In this document: positions 3,189-22,349 of the stretch, one piece after another
Position numbering within the stretch: the first letter of the stretch is position 1
Layout: every line of letters begins with the position of its first letter
Origin: a virus
Taxonomy: Duplodnaviria > Caudoviricetes
Length of the DNA stretch: 46,015 bases
Reading direction: 5' to 3' (one strand)
Virus record (IMG/VR): IMGVR_UViG_3300037044_000012
Span: 1 to 46,015 of that record
Notes under the pieces: generated by a model
What the model was told of the DNA's origin: nothing
Database searches by the model: none
Seen by the model: only the letters and a program-made list of their open reading frames with translations
Position numbers and translations under genes: made by a program

Positions 3189-3460
3189 GCGCGCAAAAAA
3201 CGCTCCCGATCAAAGCGCGGGTTTGTGTCAGCGAGGCGCAACGCGAATTGCTTCGCGATGTCAGCTCGCAACGCTTCCGGCTCGGCGTCATAGCCCGTGC
3301 AATCGAGCGCGCTAATGATCGTCGCCACGGTTGCAAAGTGTCTGTGTTGCATGTCGCCTAACTTGCCGCGATCCTTGCCGTGCGCGGCGGACTGCGTTAG
3401 CTTGGAAGTTGCGCAGCGTGGCTTATAGCCCGTGCGTCCGTCTGTTTTGTTCGTTCCCAT
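3176..3460 (-). CDS. hypothetical early protein
   Basis: Start reassigned to ATG 3460 (GGAG RBS). C-terminal NPRFDRERFLRAC resembles a motif seen in small phage proteins. Confidence 0.65.
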   Translation of the reverse strand: MGTNKTDGRTGYKPRCATSKLTQSAAHGKDRGKLGDMQHRHFATVATIISALDCTGYDAEPEALRADIAKQFALRLADTNPRFDRERFLRACQP

Positions 3461-3638: not shown

Positions 3639-4655
3639 TTAGGCGGCTAGCAACAGGTCGACCGCACGCGCCTTCAAGTCAGCGCCTGAACCGAATTGAG
3701 CCGAGTAGAGACGCGACAGCTTAGCGCCGTCACCATTGTCGCGGGCGCTGCGTTCGTGGTCAACGTAGCGTGTAACGGCTTGCAGCGCCGCGAACTTGGT
3801 CATGGGCGCGTTAGCTGCCTCTGCCTTGTGCGCGTCCTGCATCGCACGCGTCAGCGCGTCGAATTGATTCGCCTTGCGCGTCGAAATGTCTTCGCGCTTG
3901 TCGCCAAGTGGAATGTCCAGCAACGTTTTAAAGAACGTGGCAATATATTCCTTGCTGACTTGCTGCGTCGCGAACGCGTCGCCCATTTCCTTGAACTTGT
4001 CGAAACCCTGCACGAGCTTCGCAAAGTCGCGCGCCGCGTTGTCGCGCACTTGCCCCGCAAACTTGGTGCGGTGCGTGAACGACAGCGTTGACGCGTTGTC
4101 GGCATCGCTCATTTGCAGCGTGTTGTTACACACGACGCAAGTCGACGTAGCGCGAAGCGAAGAGCGGCGCGACTTGTCAAACGACGTGAAAAACAGAGCG
4201 AACATTTCATGCTTCGCGCCGCCAATTTGGAAGTCAGCTGCGTTAAAGCGAGCCGTTGCCCAAATCACTGCGCCGCCTTTGAGCGCGCCTGCGGTTTCCA
4301 TCGTAAAGCGATCGTCGACCGTGAAATATTCGCTGACGAATTGCAGCACGTCGAGAGGCTGAACCGGGTGATATTGTTCGCTCACGGGTTGGCCGATCGG
4401 CTTCATCACGTCATCGCGGACAAGGTGAAACACGTTGCCGACTTCTTCCATGACGGGCGAGCCGTCAGCATTCATGCCGGCTTTGAAATAGCTCGGCACA
4501 CGCGCCACGTGATAATCCAAGCCCGCATCGCGCGCCCAAACTTCTACCGGAGCGCCTTTAGGCGTGACTTGGCCGAGACCATGCCAAGCGTCGCGCGAGC
4601 CCTCAACGCGTGAGAAAGCGTCGATGCCTTTTGTGTTGTCGATCATATGTGCCAT
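3639..4655 (-). CDS. DUF932 / LGT_TIGR03299-family protein
   Basis: MAH..., AWHGLG, AGLDY, ETAGALKGG, VVCNNTL, HRTK and QAVTRYVDH are the characteristic motifs of this family. Confidence 0.85.
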   Translation of the reverse strand: MAHMIDNTKGIDAFSRVEGSRDAWHGLGQVTPKGAPVEVWARDAGLDYHVARVPSYFKAGMNADGSPVMEEVGNVFHLVRDDVMKPIGQPVSEQYHPVQPLDVLQFVSEYFTVDDRFTMETAGALKGGAVIWATARFNAADFQIGGAKHEMFALFFTSFDKSRRSSLRATSTCVVCNNTLQMSDADNASTLSFTHRTKFAGQVRDNAARDFAKLVQGFDKFKEMGDAFATQQVSKEYIATFFKTLLDIPLGDKREDISTRKANQFDALTRAMQDAHKAEAANAPMTKFAALQAVTRYVDHERSARDNGDGAKLSRLYSAQFGSGADLKARAVDLLLAA

Positions 4656-4670
4656 GAGATTTAGTCCCTT

Positions 4671-4723
4671 TGCGTTTCGGCCCTAGTTGGCCTCATCAGG
4701 CGGGCAAGATAACCCGCGACGCA
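4671..4723 (-). ncRNA. type III hammerhead ribozyme
   Basis: - strand reads UGCG-U-C / GCGGGU UAUCUU GCCCGC / CUGAUGA / GGCC AACUAG GGCC / GAAA / CGCA. Full conserved core, three stems, GUC cleavage triplet (cut between 4718 and 4717). Confidence 0.93.
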
Positions 4724-4729
4724 TCAGCC

Positions 4730-5035
4730 CTAGCGTGGCCCGTTTCTAACGGACCACGCTTGCGCCAGCTCGACGCGCTTAGAACGCGGCGTGTGTGCCG
4801 ACAAATCGCCAGCCATAAGGCTATCAAGAACGCCATCGCCCAAATGATAGGCGTAGCTGATATGTGTTAGCCGGCCGACTTGCAGCGTACGCTTGAGCCC
4901 TATTTGAAAGCGCGAAGGGTCCGCGAACGCCTCATACATACGGTCACCAAAATCCAGCAGGTACGCTGCGTGATCCACGTCGATTACGTCTTCGCCGTCG
5001 AGCGTCTCAATGATCCAGTCAAACTCTGCGGCCAC
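4730..5035 (-). CDS. hypothetical early protein
   Basis: 101 aa, GTG start with GGAGG RBS; stop ends just before the ribozyme. Confidence 0.65.
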   Translation of the reverse strand: MAAEFDWIIETLDGEDVIDVDHAAYLLDFGDRMYEAFADPSRFQIGLKRTLQVGRLTHISYAYHLGDGVLDSLMAGDLSAHTPRSKRVELAQAWSVRNGPR

Positions 5036-5038
5036 GAC

Positions 5039-5347
5039 TCAGCCCTCCCGCGCTTGTGCGAAGTCGACGGCAAAGCCGCGCTCTTCAGCAACTACGCCAG
5101 TGGGCGCTTCGCGATCATAGCGCGGCGTGAACGTCAACACGTTATAGAATGGCGCAGCTTCATGCGAGCGCGTCAGCACGTAGGAATGTAAGCCAGTGCT
5201 GCGGCAAGCGTGCTCGGCGATGCAGCGAGCTGACTCCAATGTGAGAGCGCGCGGTTTGCTGGATTCCGTCAAGCCTTCGCGGTCGAAATACTCAACCGGC
5301 TTAGCGCCAGCGACGCCACTCTCGCGGATGACTTTAAATTCCTGCAT
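5039..5347 (-). CDS. hypothetical early protein (first gene of the leftward operon)
   Basis: 102 aa, AGGGAGG RBS, directly downstream of a near-consensus promoter. Confidence 0.7.
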   Translation of the reverse strand: MQEFKVIRESGVAGAKPVEYFDREGLTESSKPRALTLESARCIAEHACRSTGLHSYVLTRSHEAAPFYNVLTFTPRYDREAPTGVVAEERGFAVDFAQAREG

Positions 5348-5389: not shown

Positions 5390-5418
5390 GTTATAAGGCA
5401 GCTAGTGTGTAATGTCAA
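5390..5418 (-). promoter_or_regulatory. sigma70-type early promoter (leftward)
   Basis: TTGACA (5418-5413), 17-bp spacer, TATAAC (5395-5390). Confidence 0.8.
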
Positions 5419-5490
5419 GCGGTTATAAGTTAGCTGCATGATCGAAATTCGCTTATTGTTTATGTCTCTATGTGGTTACTCTTTATTACA

Positions 5491-5523: not shown

Positions 5524-5650
5524 TAAACAGAACGCGTATAGAAGCAGAAAAGAAAAGTTATGCGAACCTGCGCAATGTGCGCAGTATCTCGGCCGCTTTC
5601 ACCGGGCACGGAGCCGGCCGAGAAACTTCGCAACCACGCCACATAGTCGC

Positions 5651-5678
5651 TTGACATTATACAGCTACATGCTATGTT
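5651..5678 (+). promoter_or_regulatory. rightward sigma70-type promoter
   Basis: TTGACA, 16-bp spacer, (TGC)TATGTT. Confidence 0.6.
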
Positions 5679-5812: not shown

Positions 5813-5820
5813 GTTATAAT

Positions 5821-5849
5821 GTGACATGGCTATGTGTTAGCCATGTCAC
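5821..5849. repeat. perfect 12-bp inverted repeat
   Basis: GTGACATGGCTA-tgtgt-TAGCCATGTCAC. Confidence 0.8.
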
Positions 5850-17203: not shown

Positions 17204-18457
17204 ATGGCGCGCGTTCCTCTCGGTAAAGGCGCGTTCAACCGCACGTTCGGCCGACAAGCTGAAATCGTGTTGCTGAATCGTTTCTTCGAACAAAGTCCCG
17301 CGAACCAAACTGACGGTGTGAACTTGCTCAGCCGGCCGGGCTCGACGGAAGAAGCTGCGTTCGGCGACGGCCCTATTCGCAAACAGTTCACGCTGCCGGG
17401 CTTGCTCGAAGGCGACTTGTTCATCGTCAGCGGCGCAGCGTTCTATCGCTACGACATCGACGGAAACTCGCAGCTCGTCACTGGCGCGATTGCCACGCCC
17501 GGTACGCCCAGTATGACCGGCGCGAAGGGCGCGGGCTATCAGCGCGTGTTCATCGCTGACGGCACGTCGCTTCAATACTATGGCGGACAGGCTTACAGCG
17601 CCACGCTGACGCTCACGCCGGGCACGATCGCCGACGACACGGTGCGTGTTGACAGCACGTATTACAAATTCGCGGCGGACCCGACCACGGGCACGCCTGA
17701 CGGCTCTTCGGGCAATCCGTATCTTGTCGCCGTGGGCGGCAGCAATGCGAACGCACTGGCGAACTTGCGCAAGGCGATCAACGCGACTGGCGTCGGCGGC
17801 ACTGACTACAGCGTCGAAATTACGGAGCCTAACGAGCGCGTCACGGCGAACGCAAACACTTCGACCACGATGAGCGTACGTGGCGTCGTGCCCGGCCCGC
17901 TTGATCCTATCGCCCCAGTGAGCGTGTCGGCCTCTGGCGGCGCTGACGGCCTTGCGTGGGACGTTGCCCAGCTCACGGCCGGCGCACACGTTCTGTACGG
18001 CATTCCGACGCCCGACGACGTTGGTATCGTCAGCGTTGCCGAACTGGGCAGCTTCATTCTGTGCGTGCAAGCGAACAGCGACCGCGTTTACTTCATCCGC
18101 CCCGGCGAGACGACGATCGACCCGCTCGACTTCTTCACGGCTGAAAGCGAAGCAGACAGTCTGCTCGAAGCGATCAAAGTCGGCGACCAAGTTTGGCTGA
18201 TCGGCGAAACGAGCATCGAGCCTTGGTATCTCAACGGCTCGACTGATCCGCTCGCGAACCCGCTCTCGAAGATGCAGGGCCGTCCCTTCAGCATTGGCGC
18301 TATCGAAGGCACGATTGTAAAGCTGGCGAATAGCATCTTTCTTGTCGGCAACGATCAAGTCGCGTATCGCATCGAAGGCGGGCCGCAGCCAATTTCAAAC
18401 CCCGGCATTGCAGAGCGCATCCGCAAAGCGCTCAAGGCGGAAAAGGACAGCGCATGA
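17204..18457 (+). CDS. tail hub / DNA stabilisation protein (P22 gp10-like), N-terminal part with an inserted domain
   Basis: LLSRPG, FFTAESEAD, GETSIEPWY, IFLVGND.VAYR and ISNPGI match the N-terminal two-thirds of gp10-like proteins. Confidence 0.75.
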   Translation: MARVPLGKGAFNRTFGRQAEIVLLNRFFEQSPANQTDGVNLLSRPGSTEEAAFGDGPIRKQFTLPGLLEGDLFIVSGAAFYRYDIDGNSQLVTGAIATPGTPSMTGAKGAGYQRVFIADGTSLQYYGGQAYSATLTLTPGTIADDTVRVDSTYYKFAADPTTGTPDGSSGNPYLVAVGGSNANALANLRKAINATGVGGTDYSVEITEPNERVTANANTSTTMSVRGVVPGPLDPIAPVSVSASGGADGLAWDVAQLTAGAHVLYGIPTPDDVGIVSVAELGSFILCVQANSDRVYFIRPGETTIDPLDFFTAESEADSLLEAIKVGDQVWLIGETSIEPWYLNGSTDPLANPLSKMQGRPFSIGAIEGTIVKLANSIFLVGNDQVAYRIEGGPQPISNPGIAERIRKALKAEKDSA

Positions 18458-20607: not shown

Positions 20608-21408
20608 GTGGCTGCTCCGTACGGCACAGCAGGCGGGCTTGTCGTTCTTGTCACCAAGGACGGCCTGCCTGTAACACGCGTCAGCGAGTTTTATGCGCTT
20701 GCTGTTACGGGACAGCCACGCGTCGAGTACACTCCTGTCAGCGAGCTTGTTATTCTCGCGACTATTGAGAAGGCAAAGGTTGTGACGCACGTTTCTGAAT
20801 TTGTCGCCCTAGTGACCTACACTTCGGAAGCGACGGAGCGTTTTGACAACCGCTCATGGGGCTTCACGCTCGATCAGCACGCGTTCTATGTGCTGCACTT
20901 GGGCTCGGAAGGCACGTTCGTTTATGACGCGCTGACGACGGAATGGTCGCAGTGGAAGACTGAAGGCTTCGTTTCGTGGAACGCAGAGAACGGCGTCACT
21001 TGGAACGACGAAATTTACTTCGGCGGCGCTGAAGACAACGTGCTCTGGCGCATGGTCCCCACGAGCTTCCTTGACGAAGACTTCCGCACTATCAAACGCG
21101 TCGTAACGGGCGGCATTCCGGCCGAGGCGCGCGACACGTTGCGCACTGGTATGTTCGTGCTCAGCGCGACCAATCAAGGCACGCTCGATGACGAAAGCAC
21201 GCCTTACGTGCAGCTCAGCATCAGCGACGACGGCGGCAATACCTTCACTGATCGAGAAGCGCTCACGCTCGACGGTAGCGCAACGCAAGACTTTTCGTGG
21301 CGCGGGCTCGGCACGATCCGCGCGCCCGGCCGCGTGTTCAAGATCACTGACGAAGGCGGCTTCGTGACGATCAAGGGCGCGGATCAGAAGATCGCGGGCG
21401 AAGAGTAA
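20608..21408 (+). CDS. tail hub (P22 gp10-like), C-terminal part
   Basis: HAFYVL, TFVYDALTTEW, LSISDDGGNTF, WRGLG and RVFKI match the C-terminal third of gp10-like proteins. Confidence 0.7.
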   Translation: MAAPYGTAGGLVVLVTKDGLPVTRVSEFYALAVTGQPRVEYTPVSELVILATIEKAKVVTHVSEFVALVTYTSEATERFDNRSWGFTLDQHAFYVLHLGSEGTFVYDALTTEWSQWKTEGFVSWNAENGVTWNDEIYFGGAEDNVLWRMVPTSFLDEDFRTIKRVVTGGIPAEARDTLRTGMFVLSATNQGTLDDESTPYVQLSISDDGGNTFTDREALTLDGSATQDFSWRGLGTIRAPGRVFKITDEGGFVTIKGADQKIAGEE

Positions 21409-22349
21409 TGCCTAAGCCCGTAATCGACCCGCTTCAGTGGAATACGCCGATTGTCGACCCGCGCACGGGTTTCCCTTCGGAATGGTTCATGCGCCAGTTC
21501 TCGGTGCAGCGCGGCAACTCGTCTGAACTCGGGGCCGTGTTTGGAATCACGCTGATTGCCGGCGCGGGCTTGACGGGCGGCGGCACGCTCGGCGACTTGG
21601 CCGACATCACGTTCACGCTCGACCTTGAAGTCGTGCGCGACACTGTTGCGACGTTCATCGACGACAGCGCTGACATTGAGTGGACGCACGTCGACGGAAG
21701 CGATTCGTTGACGGCGGAGCTGACTACAACGGGCATCACGCCCGGCGCATACACAAATGTCGACATCACTGTTGACGACAAAGGGCGCATCACGGCCATT
21801 GCGAACGGCTCGGGTGGCGGCGGTGGCGGCGGGTTTGCGTCGGGCGCTACGGGCATTCTGAACACAGCCTCGACATCGGCGAACGCGTCTAAGGGTATGC
21901 AGTTTACGCCCGATCGCGACATGGAAGTCGAAGCCATTGTCGCGTTCATCGACGCGGCTGCGGCGAGCGAGAATCACGACGCGTCTGTGTATTCGCTCGA
22001 CGGCTCTAACCTTATCGTTGCGCTTATTGGAACGTCGTCAGTCGTCGCCACGGGTGGCACGAACATGACTGCGTATCGCTTTGTGTTTTCGTCTCCGCTG
22101 GCGCTTACTGGCGGCACTAGCTACGTGTTCGTTATCCGCAACTCGTCAGGCACGGGTACGACGGTACTGCGTCTCGGGGCCAACGGCGGCGGCGCAGTTA
22201 ACCAGTGGCGATTTAATGCGCCGGGCTCGCACAATCGCGCTTGCGCGTATATCTACAATCTGAATAGTATTCTGACTGCGGGACAGGCTGTGACGACGGC
22301 CGCGAGCAACGACGATAGTTTCTGCCTCTATCCAGAAGTGTCTTTCTGA
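21408..22349 (+). CDS. tail fibre/needle-like protein
   Basis: PIVDPRTG N-terminus, AGAGLTGGG and GITPGAYTNVDITVDDKGRIT fibre repeats, beta-rich tip. Confidence 0.7.
   Translation: MPKPVIDPLQWNTPIVDPRTGFPSEWFMRQFSVQRGNSSELGAVFGITLIAGAGLTGGGTLGDLADITFTLDLEVVRDTVATFIDDSADIEWTHVDGSDSLTAELTTTGITPGAYTNVDITVDDKGRITAIANGSGGGGGGGFASGATGILNTASTSANASKGMQFTPDRDMEVEAIVAFIDAAAASENHDASVYSLDGSNLIVALIGTSSVVATGGTNMTAYRFVFSSPLALTGGTSYVFVIRNSSGTGTTVLRLGANGGGAVNQWRFNAPGSHNRACAYIYNLNSILTAGQAVTTAASNDDSFCLYPEVSF

Follow-up and report, generated by a model that had tools for sequence, protein, structure and literature searches.

Hammerhead ribozymes between the genes of phages and prophages have been known since 2011, when Perreault et al. 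proposed that they cut long transcripts into gene-length mRNAs (PMC3088659). In the searched text and supplements of that paper, tandem hammerheads of the phage type cut polycistronic transcripts both in vitro and in E. coli, HHphage of the haloviruses HF1 and HF2 lies 13 nt before the start of an early gene with a mapped 5' end no more than 3 nt from the cut, ardA lies directly downstream of hammerheads in Agrobacterium and Legionella, and DUF932 is not named (PMC3088659). Type II hammerheads near phage-like genes cleave in vivo in Desulfovibrio (PMC8782182). Beside published self-cleaving ribozymes particular phage-like genes recur, and it has been proposed that the ribozymes divide polycistronic RNA into parts that differ in stability. 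Their role in phages is still called unresolved (PMC6765202).

Here we describe a type III hammerhead directly before a DUF932 gene of an uncultured groundwater phage. As in the 2011 collection, it is intergenic, in sense with the flanking genes and located in what is predicted to be the phage early region; the hammerheads there are clustered (commonly, not obligatorily), whereas this is the single credible one in 46 kb. The layout of hammerhead and gene is known, and its recurrence before DUF932 across types I, II and III is the addition made here. This pairing was not found in the literature searched, but DUF932 may be among the ribozyme-associated genes given in the supplements to Roth 2014, Weinberg 2015 and Weinberg 2017.

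The hammerhead and its genomic setting

The window analysed is an entire virus record (46,015 bases), present in three groundwater DNA runs and in no RNA run listed. The DNA at the locus was identical in the three runs, with no variant letters, although two of the runs are possibly the source of the record itself. The genome encodes a terminase, a P22-like portal, capsid, DNA polymerase, primase, helicase and ligase, and no integrase family was found among the 48 proteins scanned. Head-closure family phrog_578 matched in two pieces (17204-18457 and 20608-21408), with a 716-aa gene of tail-fibre-like similarity between them. Scans of viral contigs with terminase and capsid, and a close-clade genome scan, returned no close relatives. 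The nearest cultured relatives are distant and mostly infect Proteobacteria; as their best matches reach only 21-37% identity, a host assignment is not supported.

Gene order on the minus strand is a promoter-like site, two small ORFs, the ribozyme, the DUF932 gene and more small genes (Table 1), and this layout suggests that the transcription unit from 5418 is an early operon. The promoter-like site is omitted from a stock promoter listing because its last -10 base is C. It is followed by a Shine-Dalgarno (SD) sequence and a short leader with a weak hairpin, whose fold was no better than shuffles (z 0.18). The leftward site (5406-5426) and a rightward promoter-like site at 5651 (5643-5663; TTGACA-16-TATGTT) are 21-nt inverted copies, 86% alike, and the stretch at 5815-5836 is related to them; these copies are possibly a duplicated promoter or operator. 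The 101-aa ORF had one homologue (69% identity), which differs in the last ~10 residues, those coded by the hairpin region. This hairpin, missed in the preliminary description, has a stability matched by 0.03% of 6570 sampled 29-mers. No promoter-like site was found within 100 nt upstream of the DUF932 AUG. In the 125-nt gap after the DUF932 gene (3640-3500, minus strand) there are several stable hairpins (-58 kcal/mol for 141 nt, no Rfam match), which may protect the 3' end of its message.

Membership of the encoded protein in DUF932 is clear (PF06067, E 2e-34, 119.8 bits against a curated cut-off of 23 bits). Thirteen homologues at 70-83% identity exist; the best loci retrieved with DNA are at most 43% identical. 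The structure model was confident (pLDDT 88) and had no Foldseek match among solved folds at E ≤ 0.001; the best VIA match (Z 6.9) fell on a helical part. Atlas features of the protein point only to DUF3871. A small plasmid DUF932 gene has been linked to phage selection in a preprint (10.1101/2025.06.20.660599).

Table 1. Features of the DUF932 locus, with positions in the 46,015-nt window
Feature	Position	Strand	Remarks
Sigma70-like early promoter (predicted)	5390..5418	-	TTGACA, 17 nt, TATAAC; 11/12 consensus
First small early ORF	5039..5347	-	102 aa, no family (ORF and profile scan)
Second small early ORF	4730..5035	-	101 aa, no family; stop 12 nt before predicted cut
13-bp hairpin	4732..4760	-	-21.9 kcal/mol; last codons of 101-aa ORF
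Type III hammerhead ribozyme	4671..4723	-	Complete core; predicted cut C4718/G4717
Stem III, 5' arm	4723-4720, plus U4719	-	From sequence
GUC triplet; cleavage nucleotide C4718	4720-4718	-	From sequence
Stem I	4717-4712 with 4705-4700	-	6 bp, one U-G; 6-nt loop starting with U
Core CUGAUGA	4699-4693	-	From sequence
Stem II	4692-4689 with 4682-4679	-	4 bp, G-C closing pair, 6-nt loop
Core GAAA	4678-4675	-	From sequence
Stem III, 3' arm	4674-4671	-	4 pairs plus U-A pair
Shine-Dalgarno-like AAGGGA	4665..4670	-	9 nt before DUF932 AUG
DUF932 gene	3639..4655	-	338 aa; PF06067, phrog_1221, TIGR03299-like

The hammerhead lies between the 101-aa ORF and the DUF932 gene, its cut site 12 nt after the intact upstream stop and its end directly before the SD. 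The core (CUGANGA, GAAA and an NUH triplet) shows no departure from the consensus. Of its three helices, stem III is open and stems I and II are loop-closed, with a G-C pair closing stem II. The preliminary description had given the same type, core, GUC triplet and stems (6, 4 and 4 bp), a 74-nt gap between the stop at 4730 and the AUG at 4655, AAGGGA directly after stem III and a 62-nt leader on the predicted 3' product, all of which the sequence bears out.

That description had also proposed a covariance search with Rfam. RF00008 (Hammerhead_3, clan CL00010) matched at 4669-4725 over its full length (model positions 1-54 of 54) with 39.5 bits and E 4.8e-6, which supports the type III assignment; at the gathering score (48.5 bits) the scan gave no match at the hammerhead, which is 9 bits short. 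This lowers only the automatic Rfam annotation. The element is like RF00008 in core, GUC triplet, three stems and loops on stems I and II, and differs from it in score, in a loop 2 A that is next to last and in its occurrence in a DNA phage mRNA rather than a circular RNA. It was the sole Rfam ribozyme match at E ≤ 1 in the whole genome. A descriptor scan of the genome returned the same site and one weak type I pattern near 22150, dropped as spurious for an implausibly long stem II region. One hundred order-3 Markov genomes gave 0 equally good matches and 0.02 loose matches per genome. Across 19 motifs, 98.9% of stem cells were paired and double changes occurred at 11 of 15 pairs, figures that are partly circular because the motifs were chosen for having these stems. 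The tertiary contact between the two loops of hammerheads joins a U in loop 1 with an A in loop 2. Loop 1 opens with U here, as in 18 of 22 type III motifs (the phage's own included), and the loop 2 A is next to last, as in 3 of the 22; it is last in 17.

Predicted folding of the transcript

The minimum-energy fold of 4765-4668 was the hairpin plus the hammerhead (z = -5.1; 0 of 200 shuffles as good). Stems I and II were robust in folding, while stem III competed with other pairings as the flanks lengthened. In equilibrium secondary-structure folding, all three stems formed together at 0.61 in minimal context, at 0.14 with 40 nt of downstream RNA and at 0.001-0.11 with longer upstream RNA. When the 5' arm of the upstream hairpin was removed or blocked, an alternative fold appeared and stem II fell to 0.33-0.55. 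On the minus strand, the 3' arm of this hairpin and the next bases (4740-4727) are an imperfect direct repeat of stem II (4692-4679), hence the alternative fold. The hairpin is predicted to shield the 3' end of the upstream product and to sequester the stretch able to mispair with stem II.

An inactive or poorly active motif in the native context, through misfolding or lack of transcription, would agree with the Rfam score below the gathering threshold and with the displacement of stem III in longer contexts. We regard this as extremely unlikely, given a core that keeps to the consensus, a hammerhead that is the minimum-energy fold on emerging with its upstream hairpin, and a promoter-like site upstream on the same strand.

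The predicted 3' product opens with the stem I hairpin flush to its 5' end, with a predicted stem I pairing of 0.76-1.0. The G bases of the SD were unpaired at 0.05-0.20 after cleavage, compared to 0.14-0.28 before. An on-switch by SD unmasking is rejected on this predicted folding, in which the SD is about equally paired in both states, and the idea in the preliminary description that cleavage would insulate translation from the upstream genes found no folding support for the same reason. Direct coupling to the upstream gene is unlikely because the SD sits 60 nt past the upstream stop.

The upstream stop is 12 nt from the cut, and a ribosome at the end of the upstream ORF could melt the 13-bp hairpin or cover the 5' arm of stem III and so tune cleavage. 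The alternative fold obtained without the hairpin's 5' arm agrees with such gating by translation, as do upstream stops that overlap the first bases of the ribozyme in most of the type II loci described below. The absence of predicted SD unmasking on cleavage argues against it, and upstream hairpins are not generally this strong (mean -11.7 kcal/mol over 66 motifs vs. -29.2 here). We consider a switch of this kind very unlikely.

Hammerheads and DUF932 genes in other phages

An unbiased set was collected with a pattern of the core and a GGCC stem II (91 viral loci, 76 with a complete type I/III motif, 74 non-redundant motifs). An SD, an ATG and an ORF followed within ~60 nt in 44 of the 68 non-redundant motifs with enough flank; the opposite strand gave 2 such cases, and random positions 398 of 2720 (14.6%). 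An upstream stop lay no more than 30 nt from the motif in 45 of 66 cases, compared to 511 of 2363 random positions (21.6%). The genes behind these hammerheads are diverse, with any PHROG family in 5 of 44 proteins. Hammerheads just ahead of phage ribosome binding sites (RBSs) are common and already published, and as an element this one is unremarkable. Seven short viral contigs (L040, L059, L061, L067, L086, L087 and L096; 1.8-4.8 kb where listed) share an identical AT-rich type I hammerhead with no SD-led gene behind the motif; they may be replicons of small RNAs or retro-elements.

In 33 loci DUF932 was immediately preceded by a hammerhead; these loci form 26, 17 and 11 clusters at 90, 70 and 45% identity. 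The hammerhead was of type III in this phage and in L320, of type I in L210 and of type II in the other 30, and PF06067 was confirmed in 12 of 12 DUF932 proteins tested. In a quick tree, with long branches that are unsure, this phage, L210 and L320 were not one clade of near kin; L210 and L320 share with it the layout of promoter-like site, one or two genes, hammerhead and DUF932. A type I/III pattern combined with a MAH/MAQ protein start gave 47 loci with 11 complete motifs and 1 DUF932 gene (L320, which is L091 of the unbiased set), and a type II pattern with a MAH/MSH start gave 66 loci with 46 complete motifs and the 30 DUF932 genes. In 29 of these 30 the motif was complete by scan, and the thirtieth was confirmed by Rfam RF02276. 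Among the 30 type II loci, 28 had an upstream ORF whose stop was no more than 30 nt from the ribozyme, only 2 had a promoter-like site within 100 nt, and the leaders were of 49-70 nt, compared to 62 nt in this phage. In L271, a long type III pattern that overlaps the start of DUF932 was discarded as spurious.

The MAH/MSH filter favours DUF932 (66 of 80, vs. 10 of 1694 other genes). Corrected for it, DUF932 makes up ~1% of the genes behind type II hammerheads, and it accounts for 1 of 74 in the unbiased set. By rough estimate, this is probably well above its share of all phage genes, with about 3500 matching stretches estimated among 2.9 million contigs. As 21 of the 30 type II loci had further hammerheads close by, DUF932 may chiefly be a marker of early operons rich in ribozymes; the flanks retrieved for the remaining 9 contained only one. 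Arrays of 3-5 type II hammerheads occurred among small early genes around DUF932 in L347 (1821-4020), L348, L350, L364 and L376. The early region of L372 contains a Twister-P5 ribozyme (3303-3366, minus strand; RF02684, above gathering score) together with a type II and a type I hammerhead, placed before and after DUF932, respectively. At E ≤ 0.01, Rfam missed 8 of 12 comparable ribozymes before DUF932. At the gathering score it gave 0 matches in 20 DUF932 loci, although the descriptor scan identifies hammerheads in three of them, and therefore under-calls hammerheads.

The preliminary description had also proposed to look for hammerheads upstream of DUF932 homologues. They exist, as shown above, but among DUF932 loci selected by protein and with enough upstream DNA only 1 of 139 had a hammerhead before the gene (L210, type I). 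Type II hammerheads with a CUGAAGA core lay right after the gene, between the DUF932 stop and the next SD, in L122 (~2470-2530), L153 (~3305-3365) and L216 (~4930-4990), with no Rfam match at the gathering score. These four were the only credible hammerheads in 0.9 Mb of protein-selected loci, in which DUF932 and the gene that follows it account for 173 of 1026 gene starts. DUF932 does not need the ribozyme. The nearest kin of L210 (74-86%) have other leaders without a hammerhead, and in L214 DUF932 is second in an operon, coupled to the upstream gene, without a ribozyme.

A promoter-like site 27-54 nt before the AUG was present in 36 of 77 leader clusters of the protein-selected DUF932 loci, compared to 95 of 422 other genes (Fisher p 3e-5, uncorrected for kinship), and a stricter promoter rule pointed in the same direction (10 of 39 clusters vs. 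17 of 198 controls). A short 5' hairpin was frequent in promoter-bearing DUF932 leaders, of which 20 of 33 reached a folding energy of at least -5 kcal/mol in stability. No hammerhead was found in 40 of the 41 leader clusters lacking a promoter-like site. Five promoter-less leaders (L104 ~1670-1700, L110 ~3935-3980, L163 ~1225-1270, L167 ~960-1005 and L198 ~1365-1405) have, directly before the SD, a long stem whose internal loop is alike in sequence and whose apical hairpin varies; looser forms occur in L148 and L262. No Rfam family matched these leaders at the gathering score, and they may represent a site of RNase III-type processing or a motif not yet described.

Active hammerheads might also spread with cassettes in a variable early region and be tolerated there as they cut between genes, DUF932 adjoining them by location and the cuts being nearly neutral. 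This would explain why so few protein-selected DUF932 genes follow a hammerhead, why the close kin of L210 swap leaders freely, why hammerheads also occur right after DUF932 (the three loci above and 5 of the 30 with type II) as well as ahead of many small genes unrelated to it, and why arrays are common. It fits less well with intact cores, nearly all of which face a downstream RBS, with recurrence in 11 distant DUF932 clusters, or with single hammerheads that precede DUF932, as in this genome and in the 9 type II loci without others in their flanks. We judge this explanation possible, if rather unlikely.

Proposed processing of the early transcript

We propose, from sequence and predicted structure, that the hammerhead probably cuts the early transcript at 4718/4717, which would give DUF932 and the later genes a hairpin-capped 5'-OH end and uncouple their decay from the upstream portion. 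Transcription would start from the promoter at 5418. Cleavage would take place while the RNA is still being made, after GAAAC emerges and the upstream stop is cleared by the ribosome, and because this stop is 12 nt before the cut, both messages would be left whole. The upstream product would carry two whole ORFs and end in the 13-bp hairpin and a cyclic phosphate. The downstream product would have its 5' end 62 nt ahead of the AUG, with a 5'-OH followed by the hairpin of stem I, and would decay separately. Processing to such a 62-nt 5'-OH DUF932 leader would fit the anatomy of the locus and the comparative data, and agrees with what was proposed in 2011 for phage hammerheads (PMC3088659). The predicted downstream product resembles the short hairpin leaders of DUF932 genes preceded by their own promoter, and the ribozyme would stand in for the promoter and 5' hairpin found with many DUF932 genes that are first in a transcript.

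In the RNase III processing of the T7 early transcript and in RiboJ, a synthetic insulator, a cut between genes leaves a defined 5' end that has a hairpin close to the RBS; RNase III processing needs a host protein and leaves a 5' monophosphate. The locus described here shares with both the intergenic cut, in this case predicted, and the hairpin-bearing 5' end near the RBS.

According to the preliminary description, the 5'-OH leader would resist 5'-monophosphate-dependent decay. RNase E indeed cuts 5'-OH substrates poorly, yet direct entry is a major pathway (PMC4191395), and RNase J1 digests 5'-OH RNA (PMC4477667), so the direction of any effect, and with it this claim, would depend on the host. 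The 5'-OH product might accordingly feed RNase J or other decay, the ribozyme limiting or timing DUF932 and the later genes in the manner of glmS, whose cleavage lowers expression (PMC6765202). The host may have RNase J, although the nearest cultured relatives, distant as they are, are mostly phages of Proteobacteria. Type III and type II products are also predicted to begin with a paired stem I, and a base-paired stem at the 5' end should hinder the entry of 5' exonucleases. For these reasons we find down-regulation unlikely, and prefer processing into two messages that decay separately.

More tentatively, and with considerable doubt, DUF932 might be selected for a fresh, structured 5' end of its own near the RBS. 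A promoter with a hairpin, a hammerhead of any type and possibly a long RNase III-like stem would then be interchangeable, and the ribozyme would be a promoter substitute used when genes are inserted ahead of DUF932. For the role of self-cleaving ribozymes in phages the locus is a clean test case, with one hammerhead, one promoter and a conserved gene family that occurs with and without the ribozyme. If true, the ribozyme as promoter substitute would give the hammerheads of bacteria and phages a definite task and would single out DUF932 as an early protein whose dose or timing is critical.
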